A stretch of DNA of 64,000 bases from an uncultured Cytophagia bacterium (GCA_964399735.1 CAYNSO010000003.1:51970-115969); one strand, 5' to 3'. Positions 1 to 23,267 are shown, numbered from the stretch's first letter. Notes: generated from the letters alone by a model not told the origin. Program-made: numbers and translations.

Positions 1-684
1 TTTGGCTGCTCCCTTGCCCAGTTTGAACTGGTTACGGATCACAGCGCGCAGGTTGGTGCGGTTATGGTGCCAGACCCGCATATCAGTCTGCCAATAGATA
101 ACATCGCCACCTGCCAGCGCCCGGCGAAAAAAACGGCTGTCGCTGCCGTTCAAATAATTATCAAATGGTCCGTATTTAGCAAAAATGGCGCGGATGAAAA
201 AAACATTCAGTGTTCCACAGGGGCCAATTTTTATGCCATTGCGCACATTCCAGGAATCGAAAAATTCTAGTAAATACTCTACCGTACCCCAGAGACTGCG
301 GGGGGTGCCGTTCATGACCGGGCCGACGATGATCTGTTTGCCGGCCTTGTAACCGTTGATGATATCATTTACCCACAACTCTCCTACCCGGCAATCGGTA
401 TCGGTGAACAAAAACAGGTCCGATTTGGCATTGTTAATTCCCAAATTTCGTCCCTCGCCCGGATGCAATCGCTTTTTGGAGTGGATGAGATTGACTTGGG
501 GAAAATCTCTACTTACCAGTTCGGCAGTATTGTCTGTGCCGCTATCAACCACAATCACCTCAAAGGCATAATCCGTTTTTTGCGCCTGCAAGGATTGTAA
601 TAAATTACCAATATATCGGGCACAGTTATACGACGGTATAATCACAGAAGCGCATATCTCTTTATTTTGTTCAGCGTTATTCAT
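1..684 (-). CDS. Glycosyltransferase family 2 (partial; C-terminus lies beyond window start)
   Basis: Hand translation of the minus strand from ATG at 682-684 gives MNNAEQNKEICASVIIPSYNCARYIGNLLQSL...VIVVDSGTDNT...FTDTDC. This is the typical GT2 N-terminal Rossmann region with a DxD-like TDTD motif. There is no stop before position 1. The ORF track shows only short antisense ORFs here. Confidence 0.6.
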   Translation of the reverse strand, partial: MNNAEQNKEICASVIIPSYNCARYIGNLLQSLQAQKTDYAFEVIVVDSGTDNTAELVSRDFPQVNLIHSKKRLHPGEGRNLGINNAKSDLFLFTDTDCRVGELWVNDIINGYKAGKQIIVGPVMNGTPRSLWGTVEYLLEFFDSWNVRNGIKIGPCGTLNVFFIRAIFAKYGPFDNYLNGSDSRFFRRALAGGDVIYWQTDMRVWHHNRTNLRAVIRNQFKLGKGAAK

Positions 685-700
685 ATCGTTACTAAATTCA

Positions 701-1852
701 TTATATTTTACCCAGCTCGGAAATTTCTGCTGCCATACCGTCCCAACTAAACTTTTTATTCAATTCTTTGATATGGCTGCGCATTGTTTCCACCATTGCG
801 GTATTTAAAGCGCCATCGATAAAAAACCGTCTTCCTGCCACGACAATTGCATCGGCATTGCCCGGCGGCGTCAGGAACCCGGTTTCGCCATCGGTTACAA
901 TTTCGGCAAAACAGCTTAGATCAGAGGCAATAACCGGTTTTTCCATAGCCAGGGCAACCTGCAAAGCCCCGCTGCCGGTTGCCGAGGTATACGGAAAAAC
1001 CGCAATATCGGCGGCTGCATACAGCCGTTCTACTTCTTCATTGACGATATATTCATTCTTGCGGATAACTATTGCTTGCAGGTTATATTCACTGATTTGT
1101 TTTTGGATAATATCTTCTTCTTCATGCCATGCTTCGCCAGTGAGCAGCAAGCGGATATTCGGAAATTCTATTGCCAGAGTTTTCATAGCCTGGAGTAGAA
1201 CCGGCACACCTTTATATTTACGGATAAAGCCGAAAAACATCAGCACCACATGATTTGGATTAAAGCCCAAACGCTTGCGTTCCTCATCTCGCTGAGCAGA
1301 ATTTGTTTTGAAAAAATTATAATTGGGGTGCGCCTTGACCCTGACATTAGCTTTGGGAACCAGGTAAAGCAACGAATCGCGAATTTCACGGGAATGCGCA
1401 ATAAAATAATCACCCATACGCAACACCAGCCGGGTACAAAATTGGCCAAAGCGGCTGGATTCATGTTCAACCACATTATGGCAAATAAAGACAATTTTGG
1501 GTGTTTTTAATATTTTAATGCCGATGCAAATCACCCAGTAAGGCAGCGTCCAGAAAGATACCCACCAGGGAATGATAACCAGCTGCGGCCGGTGTTTTTT
1601 TATGTGAAAGATAACACGAAACCACGATAACGGATTAAGCGAATCCAGTAAATAATCGACTCCCGGTTCTTCCAGTTTCACCTGGCTTTTATCTTTATCT
1701 GTTTGGCCGGGATAAAGCCACATGGGATACTGACGTTTCACCGCGCCCAGCGCCACCTGGTGTTCCTTTTTCAAGGCGCGAAATAATAATGTAGTATAAT
1801 GGGAAATCCCGCCGCGATACGGCCAGGTTGGTCCAAGCATATATATTTTCAT
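701..1852 (-). CDS. Glycosyltransferase family 4 (GT-B, group 1)
   Basis: 383 aa. N-terminal MKIYMLGPTWPYRGGISHYT and C-terminal nucleotide-sugar-binding region with the E-x7-E-like motif (VFPYTSATGSGALQVALAMEKPVIASD), typical of GT4 enzymes. Confidence 0.8.
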   Translation of the reverse strand: MKIYMLGPTWPYRGGISHYTTLLFRALKKEHQVALGAVKRQYPMWLYPGQTDKDKSQVKLEEPGVDYLLDSLNPLSWFRVIFHIKKHRPQLVIIPWWVSFWTLPYWVICIGIKILKTPKIVFICHNVVEHESSRFGQFCTRLVLRMGDYFIAHSREIRDSLLYLVPKANVRVKAHPNYNFFKTNSAQRDEERKRLGFNPNHVVLMFFGFIRKYKGVPVLLQAMKTLAIEFPNIRLLLTGEAWHEEEDIIQKQISEYNLQAIVIRKNEYIVNEEVERLYAAADIAVFPYTSATGSGALQVALAMEKPVIASDLSCFAEIVTDGETGFLTPPGNADAIVVAGRRFFIDGALNTAMVETMRSHIKELNKKFSWDGMAAEISELGKI

Positions 1853-1889
1853 ATACCACCCCTCTGCTGCAAATCACTCCCTGTCCTGC

Positions 1890-2861
1890 TCACTTATCCG
1901 CCTCATCCCTTGCACCGCCTGTTACGTTGCTTTCCATTTTACGAACCCGGTATAATACATTTTCAATCAGCTGGCGGTTGGCGCCTATTAAATCAGCCAG
2001 CAGGCCAATAATAAATATCTGAAAGCCGACAATCAGTAAAACCGCAGCCAAAATCAGGGACTGTATGTGACCGGCCCCGGATACAAATAAATAAAAATAT
2101 AAAAACCGCAGACCGATCAGAGCGCCCAGTAAAAAGATTATTCCGCCAATATAGGTAAACATTTTTAACGGTTCGTACATGGTGTAAATACGCATGATGG
2201 TACTAACGGAACGTTTGATATATTGCCAGTTACTTTTAAAAAGCCGGGATTCGCGTATTTGTTCGTTAACACGCACCGGCACATGAGTAACAACCAGGTT
2301 CTTTTTGCCGGCCTGGATAATCGTTTCCAAAGTGTAGGTAAAGCGGCTGACGACATTGATTTGCATGGCGGCATCGCGCGAAAAGGCGCGAAAACCGCTG
2401 GGGGCATCCGGTATATTTGTATCGGAAACTTGCTGCACCACCCAGCTGCCAAGATTCTGTAGCCTCTTTTTAATCCAGGAAAAATGCTCAATTTCATTAG
2501 TCTGACGGTCGCCAATAACAATATCCGCTTCCTTTTTCAAGATGGGCGTGATCAGCTTTTCAATATCACTGCCGCAATATTGATTATCGGCATCGGTATT
2601 GACAATGATATCTGCGCCCAACTGCAGGCAGGCATCAATTCCGGCGTTAAACCCCTTGGCCAAACCCTTGTTGCGGGTAAAGCTGACAATGTGCTTTACT
2701 CCCAATTCCTGCGCCACTTGTACGGTACGATCACGGCTGCCGTCATCGACAACCAATATTTCAATTTCATCAATCCCGTTTATCTTTTGCGGAAGATCAG
2801 CCAGAGTTTGAGGCAGGGCTTTTTCCTCATTATAACAGGGTATTTGAATGATCAGTTTCAT
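1890..2861 (-). CDS. GT2 polyprenyl-phosphate sugar synthase (GtrB/ArnC/DPM1-like)
   Basis: 323 aa. IQIPCYNEE...VVDDGSRDRT...NTDADNQ (DxD) followed by two C-terminal TM helices (IGGIIFLLGALIGL..., LILAAVLLIVGFQIFIIGLL). This is the architecture of bactoprenol-phosphate glycosyltransferases. Confidence 0.8.
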   Translation of the reverse strand: MKLIIQIPCYNEEKALPQTLADLPQKINGIDEIEILVVDDGSRDRTVQVAQELGVKHIVSFTRNKGLAKGFNAGIDACLQLGADIIVNTDADNQYCGSDIEKLITPILKKEADIVIGDRQTNEIEHFSWIKKRLQNLGSWVVQQVSDTNIPDAPSGFRAFSRDAAMQINVVSRFTYTLETIIQAGKKNLVVTHVPVRVNEQIRESRLFKSNWQYIKRSVSTIMRIYTMYEPLKMFTYIGGIIFLLGALIGLRFLYFYLFVSGAGHIQSLILAAVLLIVGFQIFIIGLLADLIGANRQLIENVLYRVRKMESNVTGGARDEADK

Positions 2862-2884
2862 TTGATTAATTAATCCCGAAAAGA

Positions 2885-3850
2885 TTATTCTACAATTTCT
2901 TCAATATTATATTCAGTAATTTCATTGGCATGGGTATAAATAATCATTTCTCCCAACAAGCCAATGGATATCAATTGAATGCCGATAATAAACAACATAG
3001 CGCCGAGCAGCAGCATAGGCCGTCCGGCAATTGCGCCATAACCTAAAATCCGGTAAATAAACAAATAAATATTGATCACAGCGCCAATCAAGGTAAAGAT
3101 CACACCTATAAAGCCCAAAAAATGCAGCGGCTTTTTAGAGTATTTGCTGATGAAAATGACATTGAGAAAATCCAGTAACCGTTTGATATAATTTTTAGGA
3201 TAAAGGGATTGCTCAAAATGACCCGGCAGTTGTTCAATGCTTTCCTCAGTAATTTTATAACCCTGCCGGTGGGCAAGAACCGGAATAAAGGCATTCAGTT
3301 CACCATAAAAAGGCACATGTTCAAGCAGAGACTTGCGCGTTGCCAGCACGCCGCTGTTAATATCGTGCAGTTGTAATTTGGTCATTGAACTGGTCATGCA
3401 GTTAAACGCTTTAGAGACAAGTTGATTCAACCGCGAATCACGCCGGGGCGAACGCACACCAATAACAATATCAAACCCCTCATCCAGTTTTTGTACAAAA
3501 CGCACCAAATTTTCAGGACTGACATTGACCCGGCAGGTAAAATAAATAATCTTTTCACCGGCGGCCAGTTTCATACCGGCATCCAGTGCAGCAGATTCGC
3601 CAAACATAGTGCGCAATTTGACCAGCTTGATCTTTTGAAATTGACCGGCCAGTTCCAGCATCTTGTTCCAGGTACCGTCGCTGCTGCCGTCATCGACATA
3701 AATGATCTCAAAATCAAATGCAGCGGCAGTAAAGATCTGCTGTAATTGCTGATTCAGTTCCGGCAAATAATCCTGCTGGTTCTGTGCAGTAATTATTATA
3801 GATACCAGTTTATGATCATTATTGCTTGGCATTGGTTTAATTTGCTCCAT
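2885..3850 (-). CDS. GT2 GtrB-like paralog with degenerate DxD motif (possible pseudo-enzyme)
   Basis: 321 aa with the same architecture as its neighbours (IIITAQNQ...VDDGSSDGT, two C-terminal TM helices). At the position where the paralogs carry DAD/DGD it carries FTCRVN instead. Confidence 0.7.
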   Translation of the reverse strand: MEQIKPMPSNNDHKLVSIIITAQNQQDYLPELNQQLQQIFTAAAFDFEIIYVDDGSSDGTWNKMLELAGQFQKIKLVKLRTMFGESAALDAGMKLAAGEKIIYFTCRVNVSPENLVRFVQKLDEGFDIVIGVRSPRRDSRLNQLVSKAFNCMTSSMTKLQLHDINSGVLATRKSLLEHVPFYGELNAFIPVLAHRQGYKITEESIEQLPGHFEQSLYPKNYIKRLLDFLNVIFISKYSKKPLHFLGFIGVIFTLIGAVINIYLFIYRILGYGAIAGRPMLLLGAMLFIIGIQLISIGLLGEMIIYTHANEITEYNIEEIVE

Positions 3851-3864
3851 ATCTTGTATTTACC

Positions 3865-4821
3865 TTAATATTCAAATTTTTTTCGGGAACCGGTATTCAC
3901 TACCAGTTTACCCACCAGACCATAACACATAAATAAAAAAGCAGTCGCCCAAAGTAGCAAAATAAGAGTAATTTGTATATTTAACTTGGCTGCATCAAAA
4001 TGCTGCATCAGAAAATGATACATAAAATGAACAAAAACAATAATACCGGACCAAAAACATAACGAAGCAAAGGCAGAGAAAAAGCGCAAGGGGTTATGCA
4101 AATGCTTCATCAGCAGCCGGATGGTGGTTAAATCCATAATCACGCGAAAAGTGCGGGTAAGATTATACTTGGACTTGCCAAACTCGCGCGCATGATGGGT
4201 TACCGGCATTTCCGTAATCTGCGCGCCCTGCATACGCAACAACGCCGGAATAAAACGATGCAGTTCACCATAAAGCGAGATACTGCGCAACAAATCGCCG
4301 CGAAACGCTTTGAGTGAACAGCCGGTATCGTGCAATTTTACATTCGTTACCGAGCAAATGATTCGGTTGGCAATTTTTGAAGGCACTTTGCGGACAATAA
4401 ACTTGTCCTTACGGTTCTTGCGCCAGCCACTCACCACGTCATATCCTTGTTCCAGTTTTTGCAGAATCAGCGGAATATCTGCCGGATCATTCTGCAGGTC
4501 GCCATCCATAGCAATCACATTAACGCCGCGGGTGGCTTTGAATCCTGCGGCCATGGCTGCCGACTGCCCGAAATTAGCGCGAAACAAAATGGCTTTGAGC
4601 GGTGCGTTTTCCTGCGCCAGGCGGCGCATTACATCGCGGGTGCCGTCGGCGCTGCCGTCATCAACAAAGATCACTTCATAACTCTTGCCCAACTGATCTA
4701 AAACGCCACTTAACACGCACCATACCCGTTCAACATTTTCTATTTCATTATAAAAAGGAATAACAACGGACAGGTATGGTTGCTCCGTTTGCTTTTCGTT
4801 TATTTCTTTTTCATACATCAT
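3865..4821 (-). CDS. GT2 polyprenyl-phosphate sugar synthase (GtrB/ArnC/DPM1-like)
   Basis: 318 aa. LSVVIPFYNEIENV...VDDGSADGT...AMDGDLQND (DxD), C-terminal TM helices. Confidence 0.8.
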   Translation of the reverse strand: MMYEKEINEKQTEQPYLSVVIPFYNEIENVERVWCVLSGVLDQLGKSYEVIFVDDGSADGTRDVMRRLAQENAPLKAILFRANFGQSAAMAAGFKATRGVNVIAMDGDLQNDPADIPLILQKLEQGYDVVSGWRKNRKDKFIVRKVPSKIANRIICSVTNVKLHDTGCSLKAFRGDLLRSISLYGELHRFIPALLRMQGAQITEMPVTHHAREFGKSKYNLTRTFRVIMDLTTIRLLMKHLHNPLRFFSAFASLCFWSGIIVFVHFMYHFLMQHFDAAKLNIQITLILLLWATAFLFMCYGLVGKLVVNTGSRKKFEY

Positions 4822-5407
4822 GCTTTATAAACCGTTTTTTTAGCAATAAAGCAACAATGACAACCGGCAGCAGCAGATAAATTTCCCGCACCACCGCCAT
4901 AGCATTGTGCCGGTTGAACAAGCTTTTAAAAAATCCCGCGGCATCTGCGCTCCGATGTATATCGGTGAACAAACTTGCAGGAATAATATAATACTGACTA
5001 CTCAAAGGCCAAAACAGCGGCGCACCAAACGGCGGATTGCTGTCGATTGTAACTAGATCAAACAATAAATGTAACAAGCCTGCCAGTACAAATATCAAGG
5101 CCAAAAAACGAAATTGCCGGGCATTCTTTCTGCTGCACAACCAGGCGCCGGGTAAAGCGGCCAGAACTACAAATAAAATGGTATGGGTAACTCCATGATG
5201 ATAACGATTCGGTTCGCCAACCATCAAGCCGAATAAAAAATCAATATCCGGTAATACTGCAAAAAACAGTGAGCCGATCAGAGCGATCCAGTTCAGCTTT
5301 TTACCTGTCCCCACAGTATAAACGACTAGTCCGCCTAAAGCATGTCCAATTGGTGAAGCCATAATCCTTGATTTTTTAAAAATATTACATTTATTACATG
5401 CCGCCAT
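4811..5407 (-). CDS. Small polytopic membrane protein, YdjM/DUF457-like putative membrane-bound metal-dependent hydrolase
   Basis: 198 aa. Several TM helices with conserved His/Asp clusters (PIGHALGG, LPDIDFLFG, HHGVTH). It overlaps both neighbours, indicating translational coupling. The start is uncertain: the second ATG (about 5362), preceded by AAGGA, may be the real one. Confidence 0.4.
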   Translation of the reverse strand: MAACNKCNIFKKSRIMASPIGHALGGLVVYTVGTGKKLNWIALIGSLFFAVLPDIDFLFGLMVGEPNRYHHGVTHTILFVVLAALPGAWLCSRKNARQFRFLALIFVLAGLLHLLFDLVTIDSNPPFGAPLFWPLSSQYYIIPASLFTDIHRSADAAGFFKSLFNRHNAMAVVREIYLLLPVVIVALLLKKRFIKHDV

Positions 5408-6737
5408 TCATTGAATAAAGACGGGCAGTTAATATGATATACACATTATAAAGCAACAATATGGAAATAAATACATTAAAAACAACTTTAACATGCACCG
5501 GACGGTGTAAAATTTTCAGCTTTTTTTCCGGTAATTGCGTTATGATTAAATTAATCACAAACATAAATGGCAAATACAGGGCAAGAATATGCCGTACCGA
5601 AGGTCCCAGGTAATTCCACCAGGCATTCAAACCAAAAAACACTCCAAAATAACAAAACAGGAACAGGAATAAAAACAAATGCTGTTTTAATAATTGCCAG
5701 GCTCTTACCCGGTTCATAAACAGGACGAGCAGAAAGTACAGAGTATAGAAAAAAATGAACCAGAAATAACCATACGCCTGTTTACTGGCTTTGATGGAAG
5801 TGATGCCGCCCGTCCAAACCCGGTTAAAAACCTGGGCCAGGGTATGTTCCTGGAAATACTTTTTCATACCGGGAATCTGCTCCGGGGGCATTTGTGGCCA
5901 GCCGACCCGGTCGCCATGAGCGCGGGTGCCGCTTTTCATTTGCTCGCGGGAATCGTACCACATGTAAAAAGTAGAATTAACATTATAAAAATACTTGCCG
6001 AATATCTTTTTATTGTTTTGAATATAGGGGTAAACAATTACAATAAATGTAACAAGTACCAATACAAGACTGACAAAGGGCACAAGCTGCTGTTTGAGGT
6101 TAATGGAATGAGACGTGCGATTGTGCAGACCAGTTATAAACACATAAATCTGTTTACATGTAAACCACACTGCCAGCAAACCCAAAGCCGGCATTACCGA
6201 TGCTTTGGTTAGAAAGGTGAGCCCGGTAAAAACTCCGGTAAGAATTGCATAATACCAGGTTGGCGCTGTAAACATTTTCAGAATGAGTAAAAAGGTAAGG
6301 AATGATAAAAAGAAAAATAATAACTCGCACTGAAAATAAGGCGCTTTAAAAATAAACACTGTAAATGCGGTTATAAAAAAAAGGTTTACAGCGGCATGGC
6401 GCGGGAAAAACCTGAAAAAAATCCACGCCAATGCGGCCAGTATCAATAAAGCGATTATTATATTTATCCGCTTACCCAGCACAAAATAATCATCCAGCGA
6501 CATACCCGTTTTATAAAACACCGACAGGATCAGGGGATACAAGGGGTGACGATTGCGATCGCCGGTAAAATGATAATTGGTATCGTGCAAATTGTGGGCA
6601 TAATACATATATGCGCCCTGGTCAAATTTGTTATAATCGGTATTCACCTCGCGGGCGTGCCGGTCTGCGCCATAATAAAAAATTCCAATGAACAAAGCTG
6701 CAACCAGGATAACAAGCGCAATTTTTAAATACTTCAT
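5394..6737 (-). CDS. GT-C fold membrane glycosyltransferase (ArnT/PMT, GT39/GT83-like)
   Basis: 447 aa, about 11 predicted TM helices. The first loop carries FDQGAYMYYAHN, resembling the D-E/Q-x-x-Y loop motif of the ArnT/PMT_2 family. It lies adjacent to the GtrB-like GT2 genes. Confidence 0.6.
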   Translation of the reverse strand: MKYLKIALVILVAALFIGIFYYGADRHAREVNTDYNKFDQGAYMYYAHNLHDTNYHFTGDRNRHPLYPLILSVFYKTGMSLDDYFVLGKRINIIIALLILAALAWIFFRFFPRHAAVNLFFITAFTVFIFKAPYFQCELLFFFLSFLTFLLILKMFTAPTWYYAILTGVFTGLTFLTKASVMPALGLLAVWFTCKQIYVFITGLHNRTSHSINLKQQLVPFVSLVLVLVTFIVIVYPYIQNNKKIFGKYFYNVNSTFYMWYDSREQMKSGTRAHGDRVGWPQMPPEQIPGMKKYFQEHTLAQVFNRVWTGGITSIKASKQAYGYFWFIFFYTLYFLLVLFMNRVRAWQLLKQHLFLFLFLFCYFGVFFGLNAWWNYLGPSVRHILALYLPFMFVINLIITQLPEKKLKILHRPVHVKVVFNVFISILLLYNVYIILTARLYSMNGGM

Positions 6738-6822
6738 ATCATTCTCACCTTGATCACTTTGATCATCTTGCTAAATTTTTAACACCATTTCTAAATAACC
6801 GCAAAGCGCGTCTGAACATGTT

Positions 6823-8151
6823 TTAAACTGTTGATGCGCCGTTTTCACTTTTATTCAATAACGAAACCACAAATTTAAACTTGCCGGTCTCTTCATAAGG
6901 TACTTTATCAACAACATGAATATTAATTTGCATGGTATCGCCAAGCTCCTCCAGTAACAGATTACGCAGCAATTGGTGCAAATCATCGGTAAACTGTTTA
7001 ACCGGTACAACATAAAAATCAATAACTCCCGGAACACGTTGCACAATTTGGGATAATCGTATTCCTTTGGCAAAAGTAGTAGCCTTTTGCAAACCGCCAA
7101 TATATTTGCCATATTTGTTGATGAGGCGGTCATCCATCCGTCCAATCAGGCGGTCGATCAACGGCAAGGTTCTGCCGCAGGCACACACCCGGTCGGTAGC
7201 AATCGCATAATCTTTGGTATCATAACGGATGAGTGGAAAAGCGCGGTTATGGAGTCCGGTTGAAATAATTCTTGCTTCCTCACCCGGTTTTGCCGGCGTA
7301 CCGTCATCTTTGATCAATTCGACGTGACCATACTCGGAAGCGATATGATAACCGCCATGCGGGCATTGAATGATCAAAGCCGTGTGCTCGATCAACCCGT
7401 AATTATCGCTTACCGGCGCTCCTGACCAGCTTTCCATAAACTGGCGTTGATTTTCTACCAGCGATTCCGCTACAGACACTATAAACCGGGGCTTGACATC
7501 TGTTATTCCCGCATCGTTCAAAACATGGCAGAGATGATTGAGAGCCGAAGAGTGTCCGCGCCAAAACTTTATCTTGTATTTACGCAGCAAAGCGGCGTAT
7601 TCGTGAATATTGGTTTCATCAATATATTGCGAAGAGAATTCCAGGCCGCGGCACTGCCAGTTCCAGCGATACTTGTTTGGCAGGTGCATTTTAAAATTAC
7701 GAATGTCCATAAAACCATCCCCCAGCTTGTAACCAAACCAGGAAAAATGCCGCCACTGGTGCACCAGTTCAACACTATTGATAAAATTATCCCAATAAAC
7801 TTCCAGAGGTGTGCCTGTTGTACCGCTGGTGTATACAGTTACAGGCCGGTATTTGTTAAAATTATCGGCTTTTAATTCATCCGTATGTTCCAGTACCAGT
7901 TCTTTGGAAAAGATCGGAATTTTATACAGATCAGCAAAAGAATTAAAATCTTGTCGGGCAAGGCCGTTTTCCTGGAAAAATTTGCGATAAAATGGCACGT
8001 TTGCAAAGCAATGATCCAGCATTTTGGAAAAATAAACCCATTGCAGTTGTTGCAATTTTTCAACAGAATAGTATTGGGTTTTCCACAACAACAGCCGCCA
8101 TTTTAACAGGTTGAATGGTGAAAAAAAATCTTCTAATCTGAATTCTTTCAT
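6823..8151 (-). CDS. CapK-like adenylate-forming enzyme (phenylacetate-CoA ligase / coenzyme F390 synthetase family)
   Basis: 442 aa. AMP-binding P-loop-like motif VYTSGTTGTPLEV. Size and N-terminal region are typical of CapK proteins found in capsule loci. Confidence 0.65.
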   Translation of the reverse strand: MKEFRLEDFFSPFNLLKWRLLLWKTQYYSVEKLQQLQWVYFSKMLDHCFANVPFYRKFFQENGLARQDFNSFADLYKIPIFSKELVLEHTDELKADNFNKYRPVTVYTSGTTGTPLEVYWDNFINSVELVHQWRHFSWFGYKLGDGFMDIRNFKMHLPNKYRWNWQCRGLEFSSQYIDETNIHEYAALLRKYKIKFWRGHSSALNHLCHVLNDAGITDVKPRFIVSVAESLVENQRQFMESWSGAPVSDNYGLIEHTALIIQCPHGGYHIASEYGHVELIKDDGTPAKPGEEARIISTGLHNRAFPLIRYDTKDYAIATDRVCACGRTLPLIDRLIGRMDDRLINKYGKYIGGLQKATTFAKGIRLSQIVQRVPGVIDFYVVPVKQFTDDLHQLLRNLLLEELGDTMQINIHVVDKVPYEETGKFKFVVSLLNKSENGASTV

Positions 8152-8185
8152 TTACCACATCTTTAAATTTCAAGATACAAATTAA

Positions 8186-9628
8186 TCAATCTTCAACAAC
8201 ATGAGCGGCGAAATCCTCGCGGTATTTTTTCCACAATGCCGAATTCCAGCTCAGGTCGGAGTCCAGACATTCATTCGCACGCAAAGCCATTTCCATAGTA
8301 TGATGGGTATTGTCGTGAGCAAATAAACCCTGCCTGCCAAGCGAAACCATACCGGAAAACTGAAGGATATAATTGTCGAGCGCCTCTAAATGGTCGGCAA
8401 AATTCTGGTTATAAATGGGATAAGCAAAAGCCAGGCGCTTTGTGTATGCCTTGCGTACCGGACAATTCACTGTCAATTCCATCTGCTGGAGTTCATTTAA
8501 TACTCGCTCCGTTATTGCTTCGTCGCTTGAATTCCATATTTCATCATCGGTGTTACATGGAATTTCTGAACACAATCCGGTTAATCCACGAGGTTGTTCA
8601 TTGCTACTGTAATTTTTGGTTTCCGATATTCTTGAAATAATAAAATGGTCATCGGGCACATAATGGGCATCAAAACTAGTAAACTGATCAGTCTCCAGCA
8701 CCAGGTAATGAAGGATCATGCTGCGGTATTGTAATTTTTTTCCTGCTTCCTGAATATGCTGCGGGGGCGCCGGATTGAGCAAACGCGCCAGCACGGTTAG
8801 CGGAATAGTTGAAAAAACAAAATTACAGCGGCAGTCAATAACCTCGGTTGAATTTTCAGAATTGATTTTTAGCCGCACATTGTCCGGCCGGCCCTGCCTG
8901 AAGCTGATTTGTTCAGCCGTTGAGGAATAATAGATTTTCCCTCCCAGCCGCTCTACCTCGCGGGCAAGAACAACGCTGATCTGCCCGAAACCCTGCCGCG
9001 GATAGAAAAATCGACCGGCGTTTTCCTTTTTAATTCCCGGCAACAGCGACAACACTTTTTTAATAATTTTGCCAAAACTGTTGGCCGCTACCCGACGCTG
9101 CGCCTGAATGATGGAAATTTCCTGCGGCGGCAGTCCCCATAGTTTTTTGGCATAGGGAAAATAAAAATTTTTACAAATGGTTTTTCCCAGTCCTTGCAAA
9201 AGAGCATCGGCAAAAGAGTTTTGCGGCGTGTTTTTTTTACGAAACGGTTTAAGCAGCAAATCGCCGGTAAAACCAATCACAAAAGAAAACGGCAAATGCA
9301 GAACAAGATCAACCGGGTTTAACGGAAACTTGACAAAACGATTTAATAAACGGATTCGACCATTGCGGGGTCGGTTGAGTAGATCGTCACCCAGTAACGC
9401 CTGTAACTCGTGTAAAATTTCAGGCGCAGTAGCCGGGTGCAAACGATGACTGCCAAAGTCAAAATATAATCCTTCATCATTAAAACTGGCGGCAATACCA
9501 CCGGGATATGGCTTTTGTTCGACAAGAATTACATTCCAGTCCGGTTGTTTACGGTGTAAAAGTTGTAATGCCAGCATTAAACCGGCAGGGCCTGCTCCTA
9601 ATATGATAATATTCTTTTTTTCTTCCAT
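8186..9628 (-). CDS. FAD/NAD(P)-binding oxidoreductase (amine-oxidase/protoporphyrinogen-oxidase-like fold)
   Basis: 480 aa. N-terminal dinucleotide-binding motif IIILGAGPAGLMLALQL...VEQKPYPGG. Confidence 0.65.
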   Translation of the reverse strand: MEEKKNIIILGAGPAGLMLALQLLHRKQPDWNVILVEQKPYPGGIAASFNDEGLYFDFGSHRLHPATAPEILHELQALLGDDLLNRPRNGRIRLLNRFVKFPLNPVDLVLHLPFSFVIGFTGDLLLKPFRKKNTPQNSFADALLQGLGKTICKNFYFPYAKKLWGLPPQEISIIQAQRRVAANSFGKIIKKVLSLLPGIKKENAGRFFYPRQGFGQISVVLAREVERLGGKIYYSSTAEQISFRQGRPDNVRLKINSENSTEVIDCRCNFVFSTIPLTVLARLLNPAPPQHIQEAGKKLQYRSMILHYLVLETDQFTSFDAHYVPDDHFIISRISETKNYSSNEQPRGLTGLCSEIPCNTDDEIWNSSDEAITERVLNELQQMELTVNCPVRKAYTKRLAFAYPIYNQNFADHLEALDNYILQFSGMVSLGRQGLFAHDNTHHTMEMALRANECLDSDLSWNSALWKKYREDFAAHVVED

Positions 9629-9630
9629 TC

Positions 9631-10665
9631 TTATTTTACCGCCATGTCAATTTCATTATCTTTTATTTCTTTAATAACAGTAAGAGTGGATTTATTGCCA
9701 GGCGAACCCAGAATGAAAAAGACCGCTCCTGCCAGCGCGGAAATCCACAGAAAAACCAGTTGAATGATACCAAATACTACGGCATGTTCTGTGGCAACAT
9801 TGAACCAGGAAAAAAACACCACATACCCCGCTTCACGAATGCCATACCCGCCGATCGAAGGCAGCAGTTCAGCCACAAAGATCATGGGAATGACTATGGG
9901 GAAACTATACCAGGGCGCATTAAAGCCCAAAATCGCTTTGGCTATCAAATACCCTGTAAAAATAAAAATTACCTGGTTCAAAAACGAATAGACGCTGACC
10001 ATAAAAAAATCTTTGGGATATTTGCGGCTTTCCTGGAAAACCTGCATAAGATCTGTAATACTGTTCCAGAATTTCTGAAACGGCAGCTTTATGGCTATTT
10101 TTTGGTAAAGTTTAAAAAATTGTGGAGAAATAATAATAATTCCCAATATCACCAGCAAGATGGAAAGAACAATAACCGATGGCAGAGCATCCTGCAGCAT
10201 TGGAATGCTGGATGAGGCAATAATACATGCCGACAGGGCAATAAAAACAGTAACAAACATGCCGGAAAGCCGTTCAACCAGAATCGTACCCATAATACCA
10301 CCTAGCGAATACTTGTGGTTCCTGGCAATCACAATAGCACGAATTGCATCACCGCCGCGGCCGGTAGGTAAAAACGTGTTGAAAAAACCGCCGATCATAT
10401 AACCGTAAAAAGATTCACCAAAATTGAGAGCATAGCCGCTGATTTTACCAACAACCACCCAACGTAAAGCACACGGAATAAGACGTAAAAGATAAACTAA
10501 AAAAGCAATAATCAACAACAAAAAATTGATTTGGCTAAATTTATCTAGTACATCGTTCCACTTGACAGTAGAAGCAAACCAGCCGATAGCGCCTAACGAA
10601 AAAAATATTTTTATGAATAACCAAAAGATATTCGATCTGGATTTGCCGGGTATATTAATTGACAT
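9631..10665 (-). CDS. Flippase-like membrane protein (MprF flippase-domain / LPG_synthase_TM / UPF0104 family)
   Basis: 344 aa, about 8 TM helices. N-terminal basic stretch, then FLPTGRGGDAIRAIVIARNHKYS, which matches the G-x-D-x-x-R signature of the family. Confidence 0.6.
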   Translation of the reverse strand: MSINIPGKSRSNIFWLFIKIFFSLGAIGWFASTVKWNDVLDKFSQINFLLLIIAFLVYLLRLIPCALRWVVVGKISGYALNFGESFYGYMIGGFFNTFLPTGRGGDAIRAIVIARNHKYSLGGIMGTILVERLSGMFVTVFIALSACIIASSSIPMLQDALPSVIVLSILLVILGIIIISPQFFKLYQKIAIKLPFQKFWNSITDLMQVFQESRKYPKDFFMVSVYSFLNQVIFIFTGYLIAKAILGFNAPWYSFPIVIPMIFVAELLPSIGGYGIREAGYVVFFSWFNVATEHAVVFGIIQLVFLWISALAGAVFFILGSPGNKSTLTVIKEIKDNEIDMAVK

Positions 10666-10896
10666 AATTGTTCCGGTTGTAAAACAATAACATGTTATTT
10701 TTCACAGAGTTATATATAAGCTATATTATTTATACAGGCAGAAAAAAATTCTGCGGAATACCATTTTTACACATAAACAGCCCATATTTCCTGGCGGAAA
10801 TAATGGTCACCAAACCGGAATGCTGTTTTAATTATATACACAAAAGCATGCCATACAGATGACATGCTTTATTTTTCCAAATCACTGACCAATAAA

Positions 10897-11874
10897 CTAT
10901 TGGTCACTTTTCTCATGCGGTTGAAAAATTCGGATCAGCTGCCTTGAAAATGATTTGGCTTTGGGTGCGCTGTATTGAGCAATTTTACGGTTTATACCGT
11001 CAGCCATCATACCGATCAATAATATTTGCAAACCGGAAAACCACAAGATCAGCACACTGGAAGAAACGACTTTATGGGTGAGAAAATTCAAAGTAAAACC
11101 GCCAGCCTCTTCAAAAGCATAGATCACATCAAAAATAAATTTAATGCCGCCAATTGCCAGGGTAAACATCGCGGCCGGAATAAATATCTTTAACGGGTTG
11201 AACAACATGGACAAACGAATGACCAGGTTCATAAATTCAATAAAATTCCAGGGAACAATTTTGGATTTACCGGCACGCTGGTAATAATTGATGGGCACAT
11301 ATTCCACTTTATAATTATCACTTAAAAAAGCTACTGTAGATGTCGTTGTAAAAGAAAACCGATCGGAAAGAATATTTAGATATTGCATGATCAATTCTTT
11401 ACGGAATATACGCAGACCGGAATTGAGATCGGGAATGCGCTCTCCGGTAACATATTCTGCCAGCTTGCGCAACATCCATTTGGCAGGACGACGTACTAGT
11501 GGAATGGCAACATTTTCACCCTGTCGTGAGCCCACAACCATATCGGCATCCCTGATATAATCCAGCATTTTGGGAATTTGATCGGCAGGGTAGGTATTAT
11601 CGGCATCGGTAATGAGGATAAGTTCGTTCCTGGCAACCTGAATACCGGTTTTTAATGAGGCGCCATAACCACGATTCTTCAAGTGTTGCACGACAATTGC
11701 ATTGGTAGTACGCGCTTTTTCCACTGTTTTGTCTTTGGAACCATCGTCGACAATAATAATTTCATAACTAATACCGGTTTCGGTTAAAACCCGGTTCAAA
11801 TCCTCGACTACGGCAATAATTCCGTTTTCTTCATTAAAAGCTGGAATAACTACGGAAATAGCATTTTCCATCAA
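10897..11874 (-). CDS. GT2 polyprenyl-phosphate sugar synthase (GtrB/ArnC/DPM1-like)
   Basis: 325 aa. ISVVIPAFNEENG...IVDDGSKDKT...ITDADNTY (DxD), C-terminal TM helices. Confidence 0.8.
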   Translation of the reverse strand: MMENAISVVIPAFNEENGIIAVVEDLNRVLTETGISYEIIIVDDGSKDKTVEKARTTNAIVVQHLKNRGYGASLKTGIQVARNELILITDADNTYPADQIPKMLDYIRDADMVVGSRQGENVAIPLVRRPAKWMLRKLAEYVTGERIPDLNSGLRIFRKELIMQYLNILSDRFSFTTTSTVAFLSDNYKVEYVPINYYQRAGKSKIVPWNFIEFMNLVIRLSMLFNPLKIFIPAAMFTLAIGGIKFIFDVIYAFEEAGGFTLNFLTHKVVSSSVLILWFSGLQILLIGMMADGINRKIAQYSAPKAKSFSRQLIRIFQPHEKSDQ

Positions 11875-12464
11875 ATTTTCCTGTATTATTGTTTTGTATT
11901 TCTGCCTGCAAAGAATACAAGATAATACAAAATATGGAGATAATCAACTTTTTTATGTAAAAACACCCGGCAGGATATTAATAAAACGGCTCTATATTGT
12001 TTGTAGTGGGTAATTCTCCCACTATTTTATGTACAAGAATACAGTCATAAAGATCTGATTACTGCAACTTTTCGTTGAACGACATTAAATACATTAAACT
12101 GGTGTTTAAAGAAAAATATTGCCTGCCATCCATATAAAGAGTTTTAAACTAAACCTTATAAAGAATATACTTTAATCAATAAACCTCATAATAACAATTT
12201 TTTGAATGATTTTCTCCGCGTTCCCGGCGGCCGCTGCAGTAAAAAAAATGAAACCGCAAAGTACCCGGAGGACGCAGAGGGAAAAAAGAATAAAACTTTT
12301 TCAGGTATTTTCTATTTTTAAAGTACTAGAATACAATGATTTCATATTGAGCCTTTTATATTTTAACAATGGCTCAATCGGTAAAATTACCCACAGAAAA
12401 GCATATAGAACCAATAAAACTCGATATTACCACCTGCGCCAATGATCAGCTAAAATAACCAGGT

Positions 12465-13604
12465 TCAGGAGAATAATTTAAAATACCAGGCACGGAAACG
12501 ATCGGATTGGAGCAGGCGGTTTTGCCAAGTCATAATTTGATTGAATACCCAGCCACGCAGTGAACCGGTTTTCATTGCAAATGCAACAATCTTGCGCTGA
12601 CCGGTAGACCAGGCAAATTTATAATCCTCATCGCCAAATAAAAAATCAAATTCCTCCGCCCCGGCGGTAATCGCCTCGGTAATACGCTGAGCAAGAACAA
12701 CTTTGCCGGGACTGTATCGGTTCCATTCCGGTTCAAATCCTCCCTGGAAATACAACACCTTGTTCTGAAAAGTAAATGTGCCGATAGCGGCGATGGTTCT
12801 ATCATTGGAACTGATGGTATGAATGGCAATATAGCCACGTTTTTCCAGTTCACGCACCAGGTTTTGAAAACCGCAACGAATTGCATCGGTTGCAAAGGCG
12901 CCGAGTTGGTGTTTTTGCCGGATACGCTTCTGATGAAGATCCATCAATTGTTCCAGGGCTTGCTCCAGCCCCGGCCCATTTTTATACCCCTGGAACCGGC
13001 CGGGAAAATAACGATAAAGATTTTTCACTTCATAACGCACGGCTTTGGCGCGTTTGCTGCTCAGGGCATTCTGAAAATCCGACCAGTTCTTGTCAATTGA
13101 AATAAAAGGCGCCAAACCAATTTTCTGTATGCGGATAAATTCCCAAACCTTGTTTGTAAATAATTCCGGAGCGGTCAGTAGGGTAAAATCTTCACGAAGC
13201 AGCTTGAATTGCATAATATGCCAGTTCTTGCGCTGCGCCAGCAGCCACTCGGCAAAAGCGGGCAAAACAGAGTCCTGATAATTTTTATGGACAATAAAAT
13301 TTTGAAAATCACAGTATTTGACACAGCAAAAGCCAAGCTGTTTGATAACGACAGGGCCAATTTTTGTAATTCGATAACCAAGCGGCGCGCAGCCCACCAA
13401 TTCGCCTTTTTCATTACGAGCCAACGCCAGGTAAGGATGCACCTTGTCGGCAAAGATCTTCCACGCGTAAAACTGAAATACCCAGGTTTGAAAAACAGTC
13501 AAATCGGCGACGTTTTTTTCCAGTTCTTCCCACTCTTTTCTTAACTGAAAAAAGTCATTCTCTGTATCTGCGATAGTAATAGTAATTGCTGAAAACGACG
13601 ACAT
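12465..13604 (-). CDS. GNAT-fold acyltransferase of the FemAB/CelD-like (Acetyltransf_6) type
   Basis: 379 aa. Length and overall pattern resemble cellulose-biosynthesis CelD-like / FemAB-like GNAT proteins common in EPS loci. The call is by resemblance only. Confidence 0.45.
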   Translation of the reverse strand: MSSFSAITITIADTENDFFQLRKEWEELEKNVADLTVFQTWVFQFYAWKIFADKVHPYLALARNEKGELVGCAPLGYRITKIGPVVIKQLGFCCVKYCDFQNFIVHKNYQDSVLPAFAEWLLAQRKNWHIMQFKLLREDFTLLTAPELFTNKVWEFIRIQKIGLAPFISIDKNWSDFQNALSSKRAKAVRYEVKNLYRYFPGRFQGYKNGPGLEQALEQLMDLHQKRIRQKHQLGAFATDAIRCGFQNLVRELEKRGYIAIHTISSNDRTIAAIGTFTFQNKVLYFQGGFEPEWNRYSPGKVVLAQRITEAITAGAEEFDFLFGDEDYKFAWSTGQRKIVAFAMKTGSLRGWVFNQIMTWQNRLLQSDRFRAWYFKLFS

Positions 13605-13628: not shown

Positions 13629-14093
13629 TTAATGAATGCCGGGCACATCTTTGATTTTAACTGCCGGCACACCGGCAACGACGGTATCGGCAGGCACATC
13701 TTTGGTCACTACCGCTCCGGCAGCAACAATAGAGCGGTCGCCGATGGTTACTCCGGGTAATATAACCGCATTGGCGCCCAGCCACACATCATTACCGATA
13801 TGGATTGGACGGTTATCTTCCGGATATAATTTTGCCAACACGGAGAAATTCGGATCGGACTGGCCGACAATCACAACACCTGTGGCAATGGCAACCCGAT
13901 CGCCAATTACAACGTTGTTTTTTATAACCCCCTTTTCCGACATGGGGATAATAATGTTAACGCCAAAATTTATAACTACTTTTTCCCCGATTTTGACCCC
14001 GCATTTGCGAAACAGCGTGGTTCGCAGCCCGGGATGCGGACAATAAACAGCCAGCCAGCGCATCATTTCAGTAAATTGCTGGGTAAAGGTCAT
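13629..14093 (-). CDS. Hexapeptide-repeat (left-handed beta-helix) acetyltransferase
   Basis: 154 aa. Imperfect hexapeptide repeats (GVKIGEKVVINFGVNIII..., IGDRVAIATGVVIVG, IGNDVWLGANAVILPGVTIGDRSIV). 4-nt overlap with the downstream gene. Confidence 0.75.
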   Translation of the reverse strand: MTFTQQFTEMMRWLAVYCPHPGLRTTLFRKCGVKIGEKVVINFGVNIIIPMSEKGVIKNNVVIGDRVAIATGVVIVGQSDPNFSVLAKLYPEDNRPIHIGNDVWLGANAVILPGVTIGDRSIVAAGAVVTKDVPADTVVAGVPAVKIKDVPGIH

Positions 14094-15055
14094 ACCTCCT
14101 GCCCTCCTCTTTTAGCCAGTAATTTATCGCGATAGCGGAAAAAACTGCCGGCATAACGCCGGACCAGTACAGTTCCAAAGGAAATTCGACCTTTACCGGG
14201 CAAACAATGTAAAAACTGCGCTTCCAGCCTGACGATATATGCGGAATCACCGGTAAAATCATTGCCGGGTCTGCCCGGTAGTGCGCCCCACCAAAAGCCC
14301 TCATAGCCGAGTTTTCGACCGATGGCTAGCGCTTCATCAGTGCCAAAAAATTTGGGAAAGGCCAGATGCCGCACAGTTTTGCCCAGTTTTTTTTCAATTA
14401 TCTGTTTAGCCAAACCAAAATCGGTTTCCATATCCAGAGGCGTTTGCAAAAGGGATTGAATGACTCGATAGTCGGCGCCGGCAAGTTCCACAAACTCAGG
14501 CCAGCGCGGAACATAGCGATGTTCAAGAGTGTGCGACTGAAAATCAAAAACCCCGGAATTGTGCATTTCCTGTAATTGCTGCCATTGCAATGGCTTGAGA
14601 AAATGCTGTAATTCTGGTAACACCGGTTCGTGAAATCGCGGGGCAATAAATACCACCGCTTTATAACCAAACTGTTTTAGCAGTGGAAAAGCGATATCAT
14701 ACAAATTTTGCGCGCCATCGTCAAAAGTAATTACAATGCTTCTTTCCGGCGCCCTGCTTTCACCTTTAAGATGAGCAAGCAGTGTATCGGCGTCAATCGT
14801 AACATAGCAATTGGCCGCCAAATATTCAAGATCGAGCCTGAACTGTTGCGCAGTAACGGTATGGTAGCAAAAAACAGGAATACCTGATTTGCCAAACTTT
14901 GCTTTTTTACTAAAAACAAAACCGGGAATTCCACCGGTAAACGCCGCATGGACTTCCGGCCAGTTTTTTTCCCAAATATTGCGCATACCGGTAAACAGTG
15001 ACGCCATCACACTTTCCTGAAAACAGATGATCCGGTTGCAATACCGGATCATCAT
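14090..15055 (-). CDS. Polysaccharide deacetylase (CE4, NodB-homology)
   Basis: 321 aa. Contains the CE4 TFDDG motif (VITFDDGAQNLYDIAFPLLKQFGYKAVVF). No obvious signal peptide. Confidence 0.65.
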   Translation of the reverse strand: MMIRYCNRIICFQESVMASLFTGMRNIWEKNWPEVHAAFTGGIPGFVFSKKAKFGKSGIPVFCYHTVTAQQFRLDLEYLAANCYVTIDADTLLAHLKGESRAPERSIVITFDDGAQNLYDIAFPLLKQFGYKAVVFIAPRFHEPVLPELQHFLKPLQWQQLQEMHNSGVFDFQSHTLEHRYVPRWPEFVELAGADYRVIQSLLQTPLDMETDFGLAKQIIEKKLGKTVRHLAFPKFFGTDEALAIGRKLGYEGFWWGALPGRPGNDFTGDSAYIVRLEAQFLHCLPGKGRISFGTVLVRRYAGSFFRYRDKLLAKRGGQEV

Positions 15056-15145: not shown

Positions 15146-16765
15146 TTAATCAAACAACGGGGTCAGCATTAAATTTAACGGGGTCGCCGGTGGCGCCAGA
15201 TCCGCACTGCCGGTTGGTTTGTGTAAAACAATATACATACTGCCGGTAGTTGCTGAATTTGCGCCCAAATTAACCGTACCCTGGGCAAAATCTTTGCTAA
15301 GCATTTCAAATTCAACACCCGTATCGTCAATAACATATTTCCCGGTCGACGTCCATGAAGATAGCCACGAAGGTTTGGCAGGAATACGGGTATCGTAACC
15401 GACATATATAGTGGCATCTTGATTAATTGAATACGATAAAAACGGGCTGTCATATACTTTTTTATCGTCATTTGCCGTTTTAAGCCACACAAGCCCCCTG
15501 AATTCCGGTGGAATATAGTACAATGTATAGGTTCGGTCACTATAAAAAACAGAACCCTGCGTTAATGTCTTGTTCATTATATAGGATGAACCTGTACTAG
15601 CATTTATATTTGTAATTTCAAAGGAATCGTAATTGGTAAAATCCAGACAGGCTTCCCCTGCCGGTAAATTAATACCGGTCGCATTATATGACACCGGAAC
15701 AGCGCCTGCAGTAATTTCCTGACCCGGCTCATCACACCAGTTTTCTACGGTATTGACAAAATTCGACAACGTTTCCAGGTACTGTTCTTCCTCCGGATCA
15801 ACTCCCCAAATTGTTGCCAAACCCGCTGCACCGGCAATTAATTCCGAACGCATAAAATCCCAGTTTTTGGTTGGTTCACTATCACCATTCCACACCGCGG
15901 TATTACGGTAAACACCGTCGGTACTCCAGTAAACAAACGGAATTCCTTCTCTCTTGTATGCGTTTCCATCTTCGTCAATTACAAAATCAGCGCCTACTGC
16001 ACGAGCCTGCAGGGGATCCATGGTTTTTTCAATCGCATACAAATGCTTGATATTCGGATTAATCTGCGCGCCCTGCTGATTCATATAATCAATCGACCAT
16101 TTAAACCATTCGGCAACCTTGTAATTCCAGATAACTTTGATCTCCCACCCCGGACTATAATAAACATTAGGATATTGCCAGGTCTTTTCAATAATTTTTC
16201 GCATAATGTCCATCTGCACCTGTCTTGCCTCAACAACGGCAGGATCATTTGAAGTAACATCATAAAAGTCCATCGGGTCCTGAAGCGGGCCGGAATCATA
16301 ATTACATCGTCCGGTACAGGCGGCATTAAAAGAAAAGTTCCAGGGATAATTGATAAGCCCATAACCAAACAAAGATATACCGAAAACTACATCATTTTCA
16401 TAAGCTCTTTGAGCAATAGCCGCAATCTTGTCATAAAAAGAGTTCGGAGTGTTTTTTGTATAGGTCCAGGTACATGCGGTAAAGTTTTCAATCATAACCC
16501 AGACATGATTACCACCATAATTTTTCATTGTGTTGATAAAATTAAGATCAAAATCCATCACATGAAATTTATTATTGTTGGGTACTGAACACATTAAATA
16601 AATAGGTTCACCATTATATGACAGATAATTGGGATTTTTATCAAACACTTCCAACTGAGCTCCGGCATTATGAATAAGAGCAAGGAGAAGCAAAATTAGA
16701 ACGGTATATAATATAATATGATTTTTGTAATTACGAATGTACAGGGTATTCATTGGTTTCTCCAC
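15146..16765 (-). CDS. Secreted protein, possibly a glycoside hydrolase-like enzyme with a C-terminal beta-sandwich domain
   Basis: 539 aa. Clear N-terminal signal peptide (LYTVLILLLLALIHNAGAQ). The central region is rich in aromatic, Asn and Glu residues, compatible with a TIM-barrel glycosidase. The family was not recognised with certainty. Confidence 0.35.
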   Translation of the reverse strand: MEKPMNTLYIRNYKNHIILYTVLILLLLALIHNAGAQLEVFDKNPNYLSYNGEPIYLMCSVPNNNKFHVMDFDLNFINTMKNYGGNHVWVMIENFTACTWTYTKNTPNSFYDKIAAIAQRAYENDVVFGISLFGYGLINYPWNFSFNAACTGRCNYDSGPLQDPMDFYDVTSNDPAVVEARQVQMDIMRKIIEKTWQYPNVYYSPGWEIKVIWNYKVAEWFKWSIDYMNQQGAQINPNIKHLYAIEKTMDPLQARAVGADFVIDEDGNAYKREGIPFVYWSTDGVYRNTAVWNGDSEPTKNWDFMRSELIAGAAGLATIWGVDPEEEQYLETLSNFVNTVENWCDEPGQEITAGAVPVSYNATGINLPAGEACLDFTNYDSFEITNINASTGSSYIMNKTLTQGSVFYSDRTYTLYYIPPEFRGLVWLKTANDDKKVYDSPFLSYSINQDATIYVGYDTRIPAKPSWLSSWTSTGKYVIDDTGVEFEMLSKDFAQGTVNLGANSATTGSMYIVLHKPTGSADLAPPATPLNLMLTPLFD

Positions 16766-23262: not shown

Positions 23263-23267
23263 TTTAT

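Follow-up and report, generated by a model that had tools for sequence, protein, structure and literature searches.

Results

Genes of the locus

We analysed a stretch of 64,000 nucleotides (nt) from an uncultured Cytophagia bacterium (GCA_964399735.1 CAYNSO010000003.1:51970-115969), referred to below as the window, with a focus on three adjacent GT2 glycosyltransferase genes, here named C, B and A in their reading order, of which the middle one, B, lacks the DxD metal-binding motif. The three genes belong to a single long glycoconjugate gene cluster that occupies positions 701-31732 of the minus strand, and all window features described below lie on this strand unless stated otherwise. The closest relatives are metagenome-assembled genomes of candidate division KSB1 and Calditrichota.

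Gene C (3865-4821, 318 amino acids (aa)) encodes an intact ArnC-type polyprenyl-phosphate glycosyltransferase with the motifs MDGDLQN and HHAREFGKSK, and is proposed here as the catalytic partner of B. Gene B (2885-3850, 321 aa) encodes an ArnC/GtrB-like GT-A domain followed by two transmembrane (TM) helices, without the DxD metal site, and gene A (1890-2861, 323 aa) an AglJ/DPM1-like polyprenyl-phosphate glycosyltransferase with an intact D[AG]DNQ motif, the most conserved of the set. Together with a gene for a YdjM-family (PF04307) inner-membrane protein at 4811-5407, the 3'-terminal 11 nt of which overlap the start of C, they form a cassette in which YdjM is the first gene and A the third GT2 member; C is separated from B by 14 nt and B from A by 23 nt. 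A fourth polyprenyl-phosphate-type GT2 gene, D (10897-11874, 325 aa, TDADNTY), adjoins a flippase-like gene. A promoter and terminator scan of positions 1-13000 returned counts no higher than those of shuffled sequence.

The initial annotation had ascribed to A, B and C a shared architecture of a GT-A domain and two C-terminal TM helices, and all four open reading frames (ORFs), each on the minus strand, do have it: hydropathy places two C-terminal hydrophobic segments in each of A, B, C and D, and all four exceed the gathering cut-off of Pfam PF00535 (Glycos_transf_2). B scores 67.3 bits (cut-off 23.3) and covers profile positions 1-129 of 168, and its paralogues score 97-104 bits. The nearest NCBIfam models are ArnC for B and C and those of AglJ and dolichyl-phosphate hexose transferases for A and D, none of which is matched at its equivalog cut-off; against the ArnC equivalog model NF007986 (cut-off 529 bits) B scores 134.3 and C 180.7, so neither is an ArnC equivalog.

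Loss of the DxD motif in B

In ArnC, D102 and Q104 hold the metal and D100 is the proposed base, and the DxD motif has been stated to be conserved throughout the polyprenyl-phosphate glycosyltransferase family (PMC12690121, PMC12698845). In B, residues T105-C106-R107-V108-N109 align under D100-A-D102-L-Q104 of ArnC, and three alignments agree on this, namely MAFFT on proteins A-D, HMMER of B against the two solved enzymes ArnC and GtrB, and an alignment that combines these enzymes with 236 proteins of the cassette, of which 82 are B, 78 C and 76 A. The HMMER match of B to the two solved enzymes is full-length, with E = 4e-33 to 1e-26. On the minus strand, 3524-3544 translates to YFTCRVN, the codons for T105-C106-R107, at the position of ArnC D100-A101-D102, being 3530-3538. 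The motifs quoted in the initial annotation (NTDADNQ in A, MDGDLQN in C, TDADNTY in D, and FTCRVN in B with DDGS upstream) are all present, and its statement that the middle paralogue has no DxD is borne out by the alignment to ArnC and GtrB; a search for the motif elsewhere in B found D46-F-E48, in strand beta2, as the only acidic-x-acidic triplet.

A genome scan identified 152 stretches encoding a relative of B, from which 80 loci were fetched, and 82 genomic B copies from KSB1/Calditrichota were counted, 81 in fetched loci and one in the window; the orthologues in the fetched loci are 49-88% identical to the window protein, and the 120 closest database proteins 54-88%. Because all of these 120 proteins and all 82 copies lack DxD, its loss is not due to chance or sequencing error. 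Orthologues of C carry D[GS]D[LM]Q and those of A D[AG]D.

Residues lost and kept around the active site

In ArnC the uridine diphosphate (UDP) ligands are D48, N77, R205 and S210 and the undecaprenyl-phosphate (UndP) ligands R128, R131, R137 and S141; the donor-phosphate arginine R205 corresponds to GtrB R197 and DPMS R202, and the acceptor-phosphate arginine R128 to GtrB R122 (PMC12690121, PMC12698845). The losses in B reach beyond DxD, since PxYNE has become TAQNQ and the equivalents of ArnC N77, Q104, E19, R137, R164 and R205 are replaced. Across the 82 B-family sequences, the position of D100 holds T (73) or A (9), that of D102 R (81) or G (1), and that of Q104 R (58), N (8), H (8) or G (4); the R137 position is N in all 82, and the R205 position is Gly in 81 (Gly210 in the window protein, itself one of the near-invariant residues specific to the family). 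The positions of N77, E19, Y17, P15 and K211 are variable, and that of R164/K is hydrophobic. Kept are D47, D48, S50, R128, R131, D133, S141, D158 and S210, and the UndP pocket of B, made up of R133, R136 and S146 (ArnC R128, R131 and S141), is invariant in 82/82 together with D158. In the C family (n=78) every tested ArnC ligand residue is unchanged. By these kept and replaced positions, the active site of B has been stripped of its donor and metal half, whereas the lipid-phosphate half is retained. Two B orthologues, P0086 (L002, 10001-10948; L and P numbers denote loci and proteins of our collection) and one further protein, have TAGIG instead of T-x-R-V-R and so lack an Arg where the metal site used to be, yet show the remaining signatures of the family and stand in the C-B-A order.

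The AlphaFold2 model of B has a mean predicted local distance difference test score of 79.8, with helices at 218-237, 241-269 and 276-307. As Foldseek matches the model to ArnC and GtrB over about 320 columns, that is the whole chain, with TM-scores of 0.65-0.72 (about 0.70 for ArnC), the fold of B is predicted to be intact.

Complementary conservation of B and C

Regional conservation, taken as mean pairwise identity across the cassette families, is complementary in the two proteins, being concentrated in the catalytic domain of C and in the membrane helices and C-terminal tail of B. The values for B and C are 0.42 and 0.59 in the N-terminal half of the GT-A domain and 0.55 and 0.73 in its C-terminal half, whereas they are 0.67 and 0.30 in TM1, 0.67 and 0.13 in the periplasmic loop, 0.82 and 0.47 in TM2, and 0.65 and 0.26 in the C-terminal tail. 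The family-wide TM2 motif GxQxxxxGLxGE is kept in B-type proteins, as is an ArnC-like tail (KEYxIxxI); in the C protein of the window this motif is gone, and the tails of C-type proteins are unconserved. In ArnC each GT-A sheet receives its eighth beta strand from an adjacent protomer, and in GtrB TM2 and the C-terminal domain contact the neighbouring protomer (PMC12690121, PMC12698845); by analogy, B may supply such inter-protomer contacts in a mixed oligomer with C. Mirror-tree partial correlations were 0.64 for B and C given A, with controls of 0.28 for B and A given C and 0.41 for C and A given B, so that the B and C distance matrices co-vary beyond phylogeny alone, which is weak support for an association of the two proteins.

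A fixed cassette in KSB1 and Calditrichota

Between the window and L003, the ratio of nonsynonymous to synonymous substitution rates (dN/dS) is 0.064 for B, 0.044 for C and 0.063 for A, and the reading frame of B is intact in every locus examined. The same-strand order YdjM-C-B-A was found in essentially every locus with enough flanking DNA: C lies directly upstream of B in 77/77 testable loci, and of the 38 loci that reach 19 kb or more, all have C and B, 36 have A and 34 have YdjM. A-B-C is thus an old, fixed cassette across two phylum-level groups and not a recent triplication. A belongs to a different, AglJ/DPM-like subfamily and is 21-23% identical to B and C. In L031, L054, L076, L077 and L081 B is followed by a gene with no more than 25-30% identity to A, and five sequences of the A alignment have MIDADETY instead of NTD[AG]DNQY; a different GT2 can therefore take the third cassette position.

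The wider clade of proteins without DxD

An exhaustive phmmer search with B was run against 1.84 billion cluster representatives (50% identity), and among the 150 best matches examined, 48 representatives have no DxD. The usual reading at the site is [APS]-x-Y-[FL]-Q, with N-T-S in a single protein (P0123). Across 159 DxD-less proteins, ArnC R128 and D158 are kept in 159/159, R131 in 152 and D133 in 153, and the S141 position is Ser in 128 and Thr in another 12; D100, D102, N77 and R205 are lost, and so mostly is the first Asp of DDGS. Derived signatures common to B and the clade are E in place of Q80 (140 proteins), P130 (147), N in place of R137 (142) and Q in place of H202 (144), together with the loss of R205. 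Neighbour joining groups B and all other DxD-less proteins in a single clade that excludes C, ArnC, GtrB and the canonical representatives without exception; its bootstrap is 199/200 when all columns are used. We had also considered a recent duplication as the origin of B and rejected it, the tree placing B in this separate old clade and not beside C. The named sources of the clade include Acidobacteriota and Thermoanaerobaculia, no NCBIfam model is specific for its proteins, and our literature searches turned up neither DxD-less proteins of the ArnC/GtrB type nor polyprenyl-phosphate glycosyltransferases described as hetero-oligomeric; B belongs to an old, widespread and apparently undescribed clade of ArnC/GtrB-type paralogues, in which the site for metal and nucleotide sugar is gone and the GT-A fold, the pocket for the polyprenyl-phosphate head group, the two-helix membrane domain and the C-terminal tail persist. 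In one natural tandem fusion, P0121 (633 aa), a complete ArnC-like module that carries DADLQD and two TM helices occurs twice in the chain, which fits the dimer as a building block of ArnC-like enzymes.

The fate of the triplication claim follows from these comparisons. The initial annotation had read the three genes as a tandem triplication diversifying the sugar specificity for side-chain decoration; this is contradicted by the different subfamily of A, the separate old clade of B and the fixed order C-B-A.

DxD-less genes almost always follow an intact GT2 gene

DxD-less proteins of other lineages were looked up and gave the loci L083-L094. An intact GT2 gene lies directly upstream on the same strand in 8/8 of the loci with enough upstream DNA (L084, L085, L086/L087, L089, L090, L091, L092 and L093), and the short contigs L083 and L088 end inside the C-terminal helix of such an upstream gene. 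Like C, this upstream GT2 carries MDGDLQNDP and HHARxxGxSKYG. The paired genes lie 1-24 nt apart or overlap by 4 nt, the 4-nt overlap being seen in 4/10 pairs when the window and L001 are included. YdjM was missing from the non-KSB1 pairs looked at.

Metagenomes were scanned with 33 DxD-less proteins from outside KSB1, which gave 577 relatives, and pairing was counted in the 59 fetched loci with at least 300 nt of upstream DNA. An adjacent upstream GT2 is present in 56/59: in 48 it has exactly D-G-D-L-Q, in 7 more the adjacent GT2 is cut by the contig end, and in one it has DGNMD. This last gene (L105, 2525-3442), the sole adjacent metagenome partner without DGDLQ, reads MDGNMDYDP, with the second Asp replaced by Asn.

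Fusions and recurrent neighbours

In P0206 and P0233 the DxD-less module is fused to a C-terminal FemAB-family XrtA/PEP-CTERM-associated protein (TIGR03019 / PF13480), and L093 is a minimal two-gene unit in which a C-type GT2 is followed by such a DxD-less/FemAB-like fusion; in one weak case a DxD-less protein is fused to a flippase-like domain. In L090, L091 and L092 the pair is flanked by FemAB-like genes that are not fused to it, and one such gene stands directly upstream of YdjM in the Calditrichota locus L064. A BLASTP neighbour census placed a FemAB-like gene near the cassette in at least 10/38 long loci, a figure that under-counts divergent FemAB-like genes, the L064 case having been found by Pfam only. 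Further recurrent neighbours are LPG_synthase_TM proteins, polysaccharide deacetylases, AsnB-like amidotransferases, the exosortase EpsH and PMT_2 GT-C enzymes, and a PMT_2 gene follows the pair in L084, L085 and L086.

The window has the same parts, that is a FemAB-like gene, a deacetylase, two flippase-like genes and a divergent GT-C gene. The FemAB-like Acetyltransf_6 (PF13480) protein is encoded at 12465-13604, its family being adjacent or fused to the DxD-less module in other bacteria, and the polysaccharide deacetylase (PF01522, the fold family of ArnD), another recurrent neighbour of the module, at 14090-15055. Of the two LPG_synthase_TM / TIGR00374 flippase-like membrane proteins (9631-10665 and 17056-18114), the former represents a gene type that recurs near DxD-less pairs in other phyla; it lies directly downstream of D, an adjacency also seen in L001, L003, L005 and L007. 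Just upstream of YdjM, 5394-6737 encodes a polytopic membrane protein of 447 aa, a divergent GT-C (ArnT/PMT_2-like); it has no Pfam match of its own, and its homologues carry PF13231 or PF02366 or come with the source names 'ArnT-like' or 'GT39'. It likely consumes a polyprenyl-phosphate sugar.

Other genes of the window

Between the flippase-like gene and the GT-C gene lie a PaaK/F390-synthetase/CapK-like adenylate-forming ligase and a PRK07208-type flavin adenine dinucleotide (FAD) oxidoreductase (6823-8151 and 8186-9628); CapK_C-type ligases adjoin the GT2/DxD-less pair also in L084 and L085. The 539-aa ORF at 15146-16765 has no Pfam or NCBIfam match at E <= 0.001 and has relatives in 8/38 long cassette loci, and in L064 a 542-aa ORF without Pfam matches stands directly after gene A. 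The region 22240-25861 encodes a GlpD-like FAD oxidoreductase (DAO + DAO_C), a class I methyltransferase and an NAD epimerase, and these gene types stand as a trio just upstream of LPG_synthase_TM and the GT2/DxD-less pair in L084 (1-2049) and L091 (1-2121), from other lineages, which suggests a larger conserved module. At 26955-31732 the cluster also encodes an initiating phosphoglycosyltransferase (Bac_transf) and a protein that resembles GNVR/AAA_31 chain-length regulators. Further along, a glycogen synthase and a PBP2-type transpeptidase are encoded at 33521-35047 and 39323-41149 on the same strand. The coding strand switches at about 43200-43900, with minus-strand genes up to 43240 and plus-strand genes from 43858, and the guanine-cytosine skew changes sign at about 44 kb; this switch is probably coding-strand bias and not necessarily a replication landmark.

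Discussion

The proteins described here form a large clade that breaks the DxD rule yet keeps the lipid-phosphate pocket, and their genes stand almost always behind that of an intact DGDLQ-type enzyme. We propose, with a probability of roughly 0.6, that B is a non-catalytic, polyprenyl-phosphate-binding subunit that assembles with the intact C and that it may hand the lipid-linked sugar on to tailoring, flipping or GT-C proteins. C and B would be made together, C being encoded immediately upstream, and would probably assemble into a hetero-oligomer within which C catalyses the reaction of a nucleoside diphosphate sugar with polyprenyl phosphate to polyprenyl-P-sugar. B itself most likely transfers no sugar; it would supply a membrane and oligomerisation scaffold and a second lipid-phosphate binding site, where the lipid carrier or the product may be retained and then passed on to the FemAB-like acyl/aminoacyl transferase, the deacetylase, the flippase-like protein or the GT-C transferase. 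The initial annotation had offered a non-catalytic partner as one of its options for the middle gene, and this part of its interpretation fits the evidence best, the metal and donor-phosphate ligands being gone, purifying selection strong, and the gene placed almost always directly after an intact paralogue; the part that saw diversification of sugar specificity is unsupported.

Several observations weigh against this proposal. T105, R107, V108, E85, N142, N165 and Q207 are nearly invariant in the B family, DDGS is kept, and a basic residue is usual at the Q104 position (R in 58/82), so that these B-specific invariant pocket residues could reflect a new ligand or a new chemistry. When 70 functional-site columns are masked, the bootstrap of the DxD-less clade falls to 107/200, leaving its monophyly moderately supported. 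Similar evolutionary rates of B and C can inflate the mirror-tree signal, and among the 59 metagenome loci an upstream GT2 is missing from one and stands 0.5-1.2 kb off in two others. In addition, we infer the association of B with C solely from gene order, gene overlap, co-variation and the oligomeric state of homologues, and the absence of catalysis, the lipid binding and the hand-off role are inferences as well.

Loss of the catalytic motif and a Pfam GT2 score below those of the paralogues (67 against 97-104 bits) are what a decaying duplicate without function would show, but a dN/dS equal to that of the neighbouring genes, the intact frames, the family-specific invariant residues, the 152 genomic stretches encoding a relative and the spread of the clade over several phyla exclude such a relic, and the pseudogene reading was rejected on dN/dS and breadth. 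Another reading is that B is an active, metal-independent glycosyltransferase, in which R107 and the mostly basic residue 109 would replace the cation and neutralise the diphosphate of the nucleotide, and D163 or E85 would act as base. Metal-independent GT-A enzymes such as the GT14 enzyme C2GnT-L use basic residues in place of the cation, and B resembles them in having no DxD and in having R107 and R/N/H109 at the metal position in most orthologues; the retention of DDGS, R133, R136, S146 and D163, the new invariant E85 and the intact predicted fold are in line with such an activity. However, B differs from these enzymes in that its other nucleotide ligands are lost or variable: the donor-phosphate ligand R205 is Gly in 81/82, the positions of N77, E19, Y17 and P15 vary, the base D100 is Thr or Ala, and the nucleotide-binding N-half is the least conserved part of the protein (0.42). 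Moreover, the Arg itself is missing from some orthologues (TAGIG, L002/P0086) and from sister subclades, which have [APS]xY or NTS with the first DDGS Asp mostly lost and keep the same gene pairing. We regard this activity as quite improbable, and the different donor chemistry that the initial annotation had allowed for is disfavoured, the DxD replacements varying by subclade (TxR, [APS]xY, NTS) and the nucleoside-binding positions being relaxed.

A further reading is that B acts alone and not as a subunit of C, as a binder of lipid-linked sugars, an adaptor that presents polyprenyl-P-sugar to the FemAB-like or deacetylase enzymes, an enzyme other than a glycosyltransferase, or a flipping helper, the pairing then reflecting no more than a shared pathway. 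Conservation of the UndP pocket and D158 across 159 DxD-less proteins agrees with this, as do TM2 and the periplasmic loop being the most conserved parts of B, the FemAB-like fusions, the single weak flippase-like fusion, and the recurrence of LPG_synthase_TM and GT-C genes nearby. It overlaps with the subunit proposal in the lipid-binding role, and the two part over C: adjacency to a DGDLQ-type GT2 (56/59, often with the 4-nt overlap) is far tighter than to any other pathway gene, conservation is complementary between B and C, the partial correlation of B with C exceeds that with A, and the homologues are obligate oligomers. A solitary role for B therefore seems unlikely to us.

The subunit proposal can be carried further, to a tentative and rather doubtful extension in which the DxD-less clade as a whole would be a new class of lipid-carrier-handling subunits that form obligate hetero-oligomers with DGDLQ-type enzymes, capture polyprenyl-P-sugar in the phosphate pocket, channel it to cytoplasmic tailoring (FemAB-like aminoacyl/acyl transfer and deacetylation) and possibly help it across the membrane to the GT-C enzyme. 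If true, this would amount to a multi-enzyme machine that modifies lipid-linked sugars and is widespread in KSB1, Calditrichota, Acidobacteriota and exosortase-type polysaccharide loci. For exosortase-type exopolysaccharide systems, the FemAB-like fusions suggest a tailoring step, as yet unstudied, that acts on lipid-linked sugars. A B-C hetero-oligomer, if confirmed, would also explain the 'two GT2 genes' annotated in many polysaccharide loci where one sugar transfer suffices, and would correct the sugar-count predictions made from such loci.

Comparison with known systems

B shares with ArnC (PmrF), GtrB and DPMS (PDB 9hwj, 9bhc, 8vxh, 5ekp, 5mlz) the layout of a GT-A domain, a juxtamembrane helix and two TM helices, and with ArnC and GtrB also the UndP-pocket equivalents of R128, R131 and S141 and the TM2 motif GxQxxxxGxxGE; unlike these enzymes it has no DxD-Q metal site, no R205 ligand and no N77. 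ArnC and GtrB are homotetramers held together by the TM helices and a swapped C-terminal element (PMC12690121, PMC12698845), whereas B is nearly always paired with an intact paralogue.

Non-catalytic membrane proteins that are encoded or assembled with the glycosyltransferase, and stabilise or stimulate it, are found in the polyprenyl-phosphate field: GacJ is the partner of streptococcal GacI, and DPM2/DPM3 are those of mammalian DPM1. GacJ and DPM2/DPM3 are, however, small unrelated membrane proteins, and B is a full-length paralogue of the enzyme. In the pairs GAUT1:GAUT7 and streptococcal GtfA-GtfB the non-catalytic partner is itself glycosyltransferase-like. Plant IRX9 in xylan synthesis (PMC4132061) and XXT2-XXT5 (PMC13376630) are further cases of this sort. 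B resembles all of them in being a paralogue without catalytic residues that is kept under selection beside an active enzyme, but they belong to other glycosyltransferase families and folds (GT43, GT34, GT8, GT-B) and are mostly eukaryotic, and the B-C complex is so far only a proposal. The term 'pseudoglycosyltransferase' denotes in the literature C-N coupling enzymes of the VldE/ValL type, which are unrelated to B. Our literature searches found no non-catalytic partner case in the membrane polyprenyl-phosphate GT2 family, and a B-C hetero-oligomer, if true, would be the first case found there of catalysis and membrane or lipid handling being split between two paralogues.

At the level of the pathway, the window resembles the Arn lipid A pathway, which consists of ArnC, the deformylase ArnD, the flippase ArnE/F and the GT-C enzyme ArnT: it shares an ArnC-type GT2 (C), a deacetylase-family gene, flippase-like proteins and an ArnT/PMT_2-like GT-C, and the related locus L089 has a formyltransferase upstream. 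Compared with that pathway, C scores 181 bits against the ArnC cut-off of 529, and the window adds the DxD-less subunit, FemAB-like transferases and YdjM.

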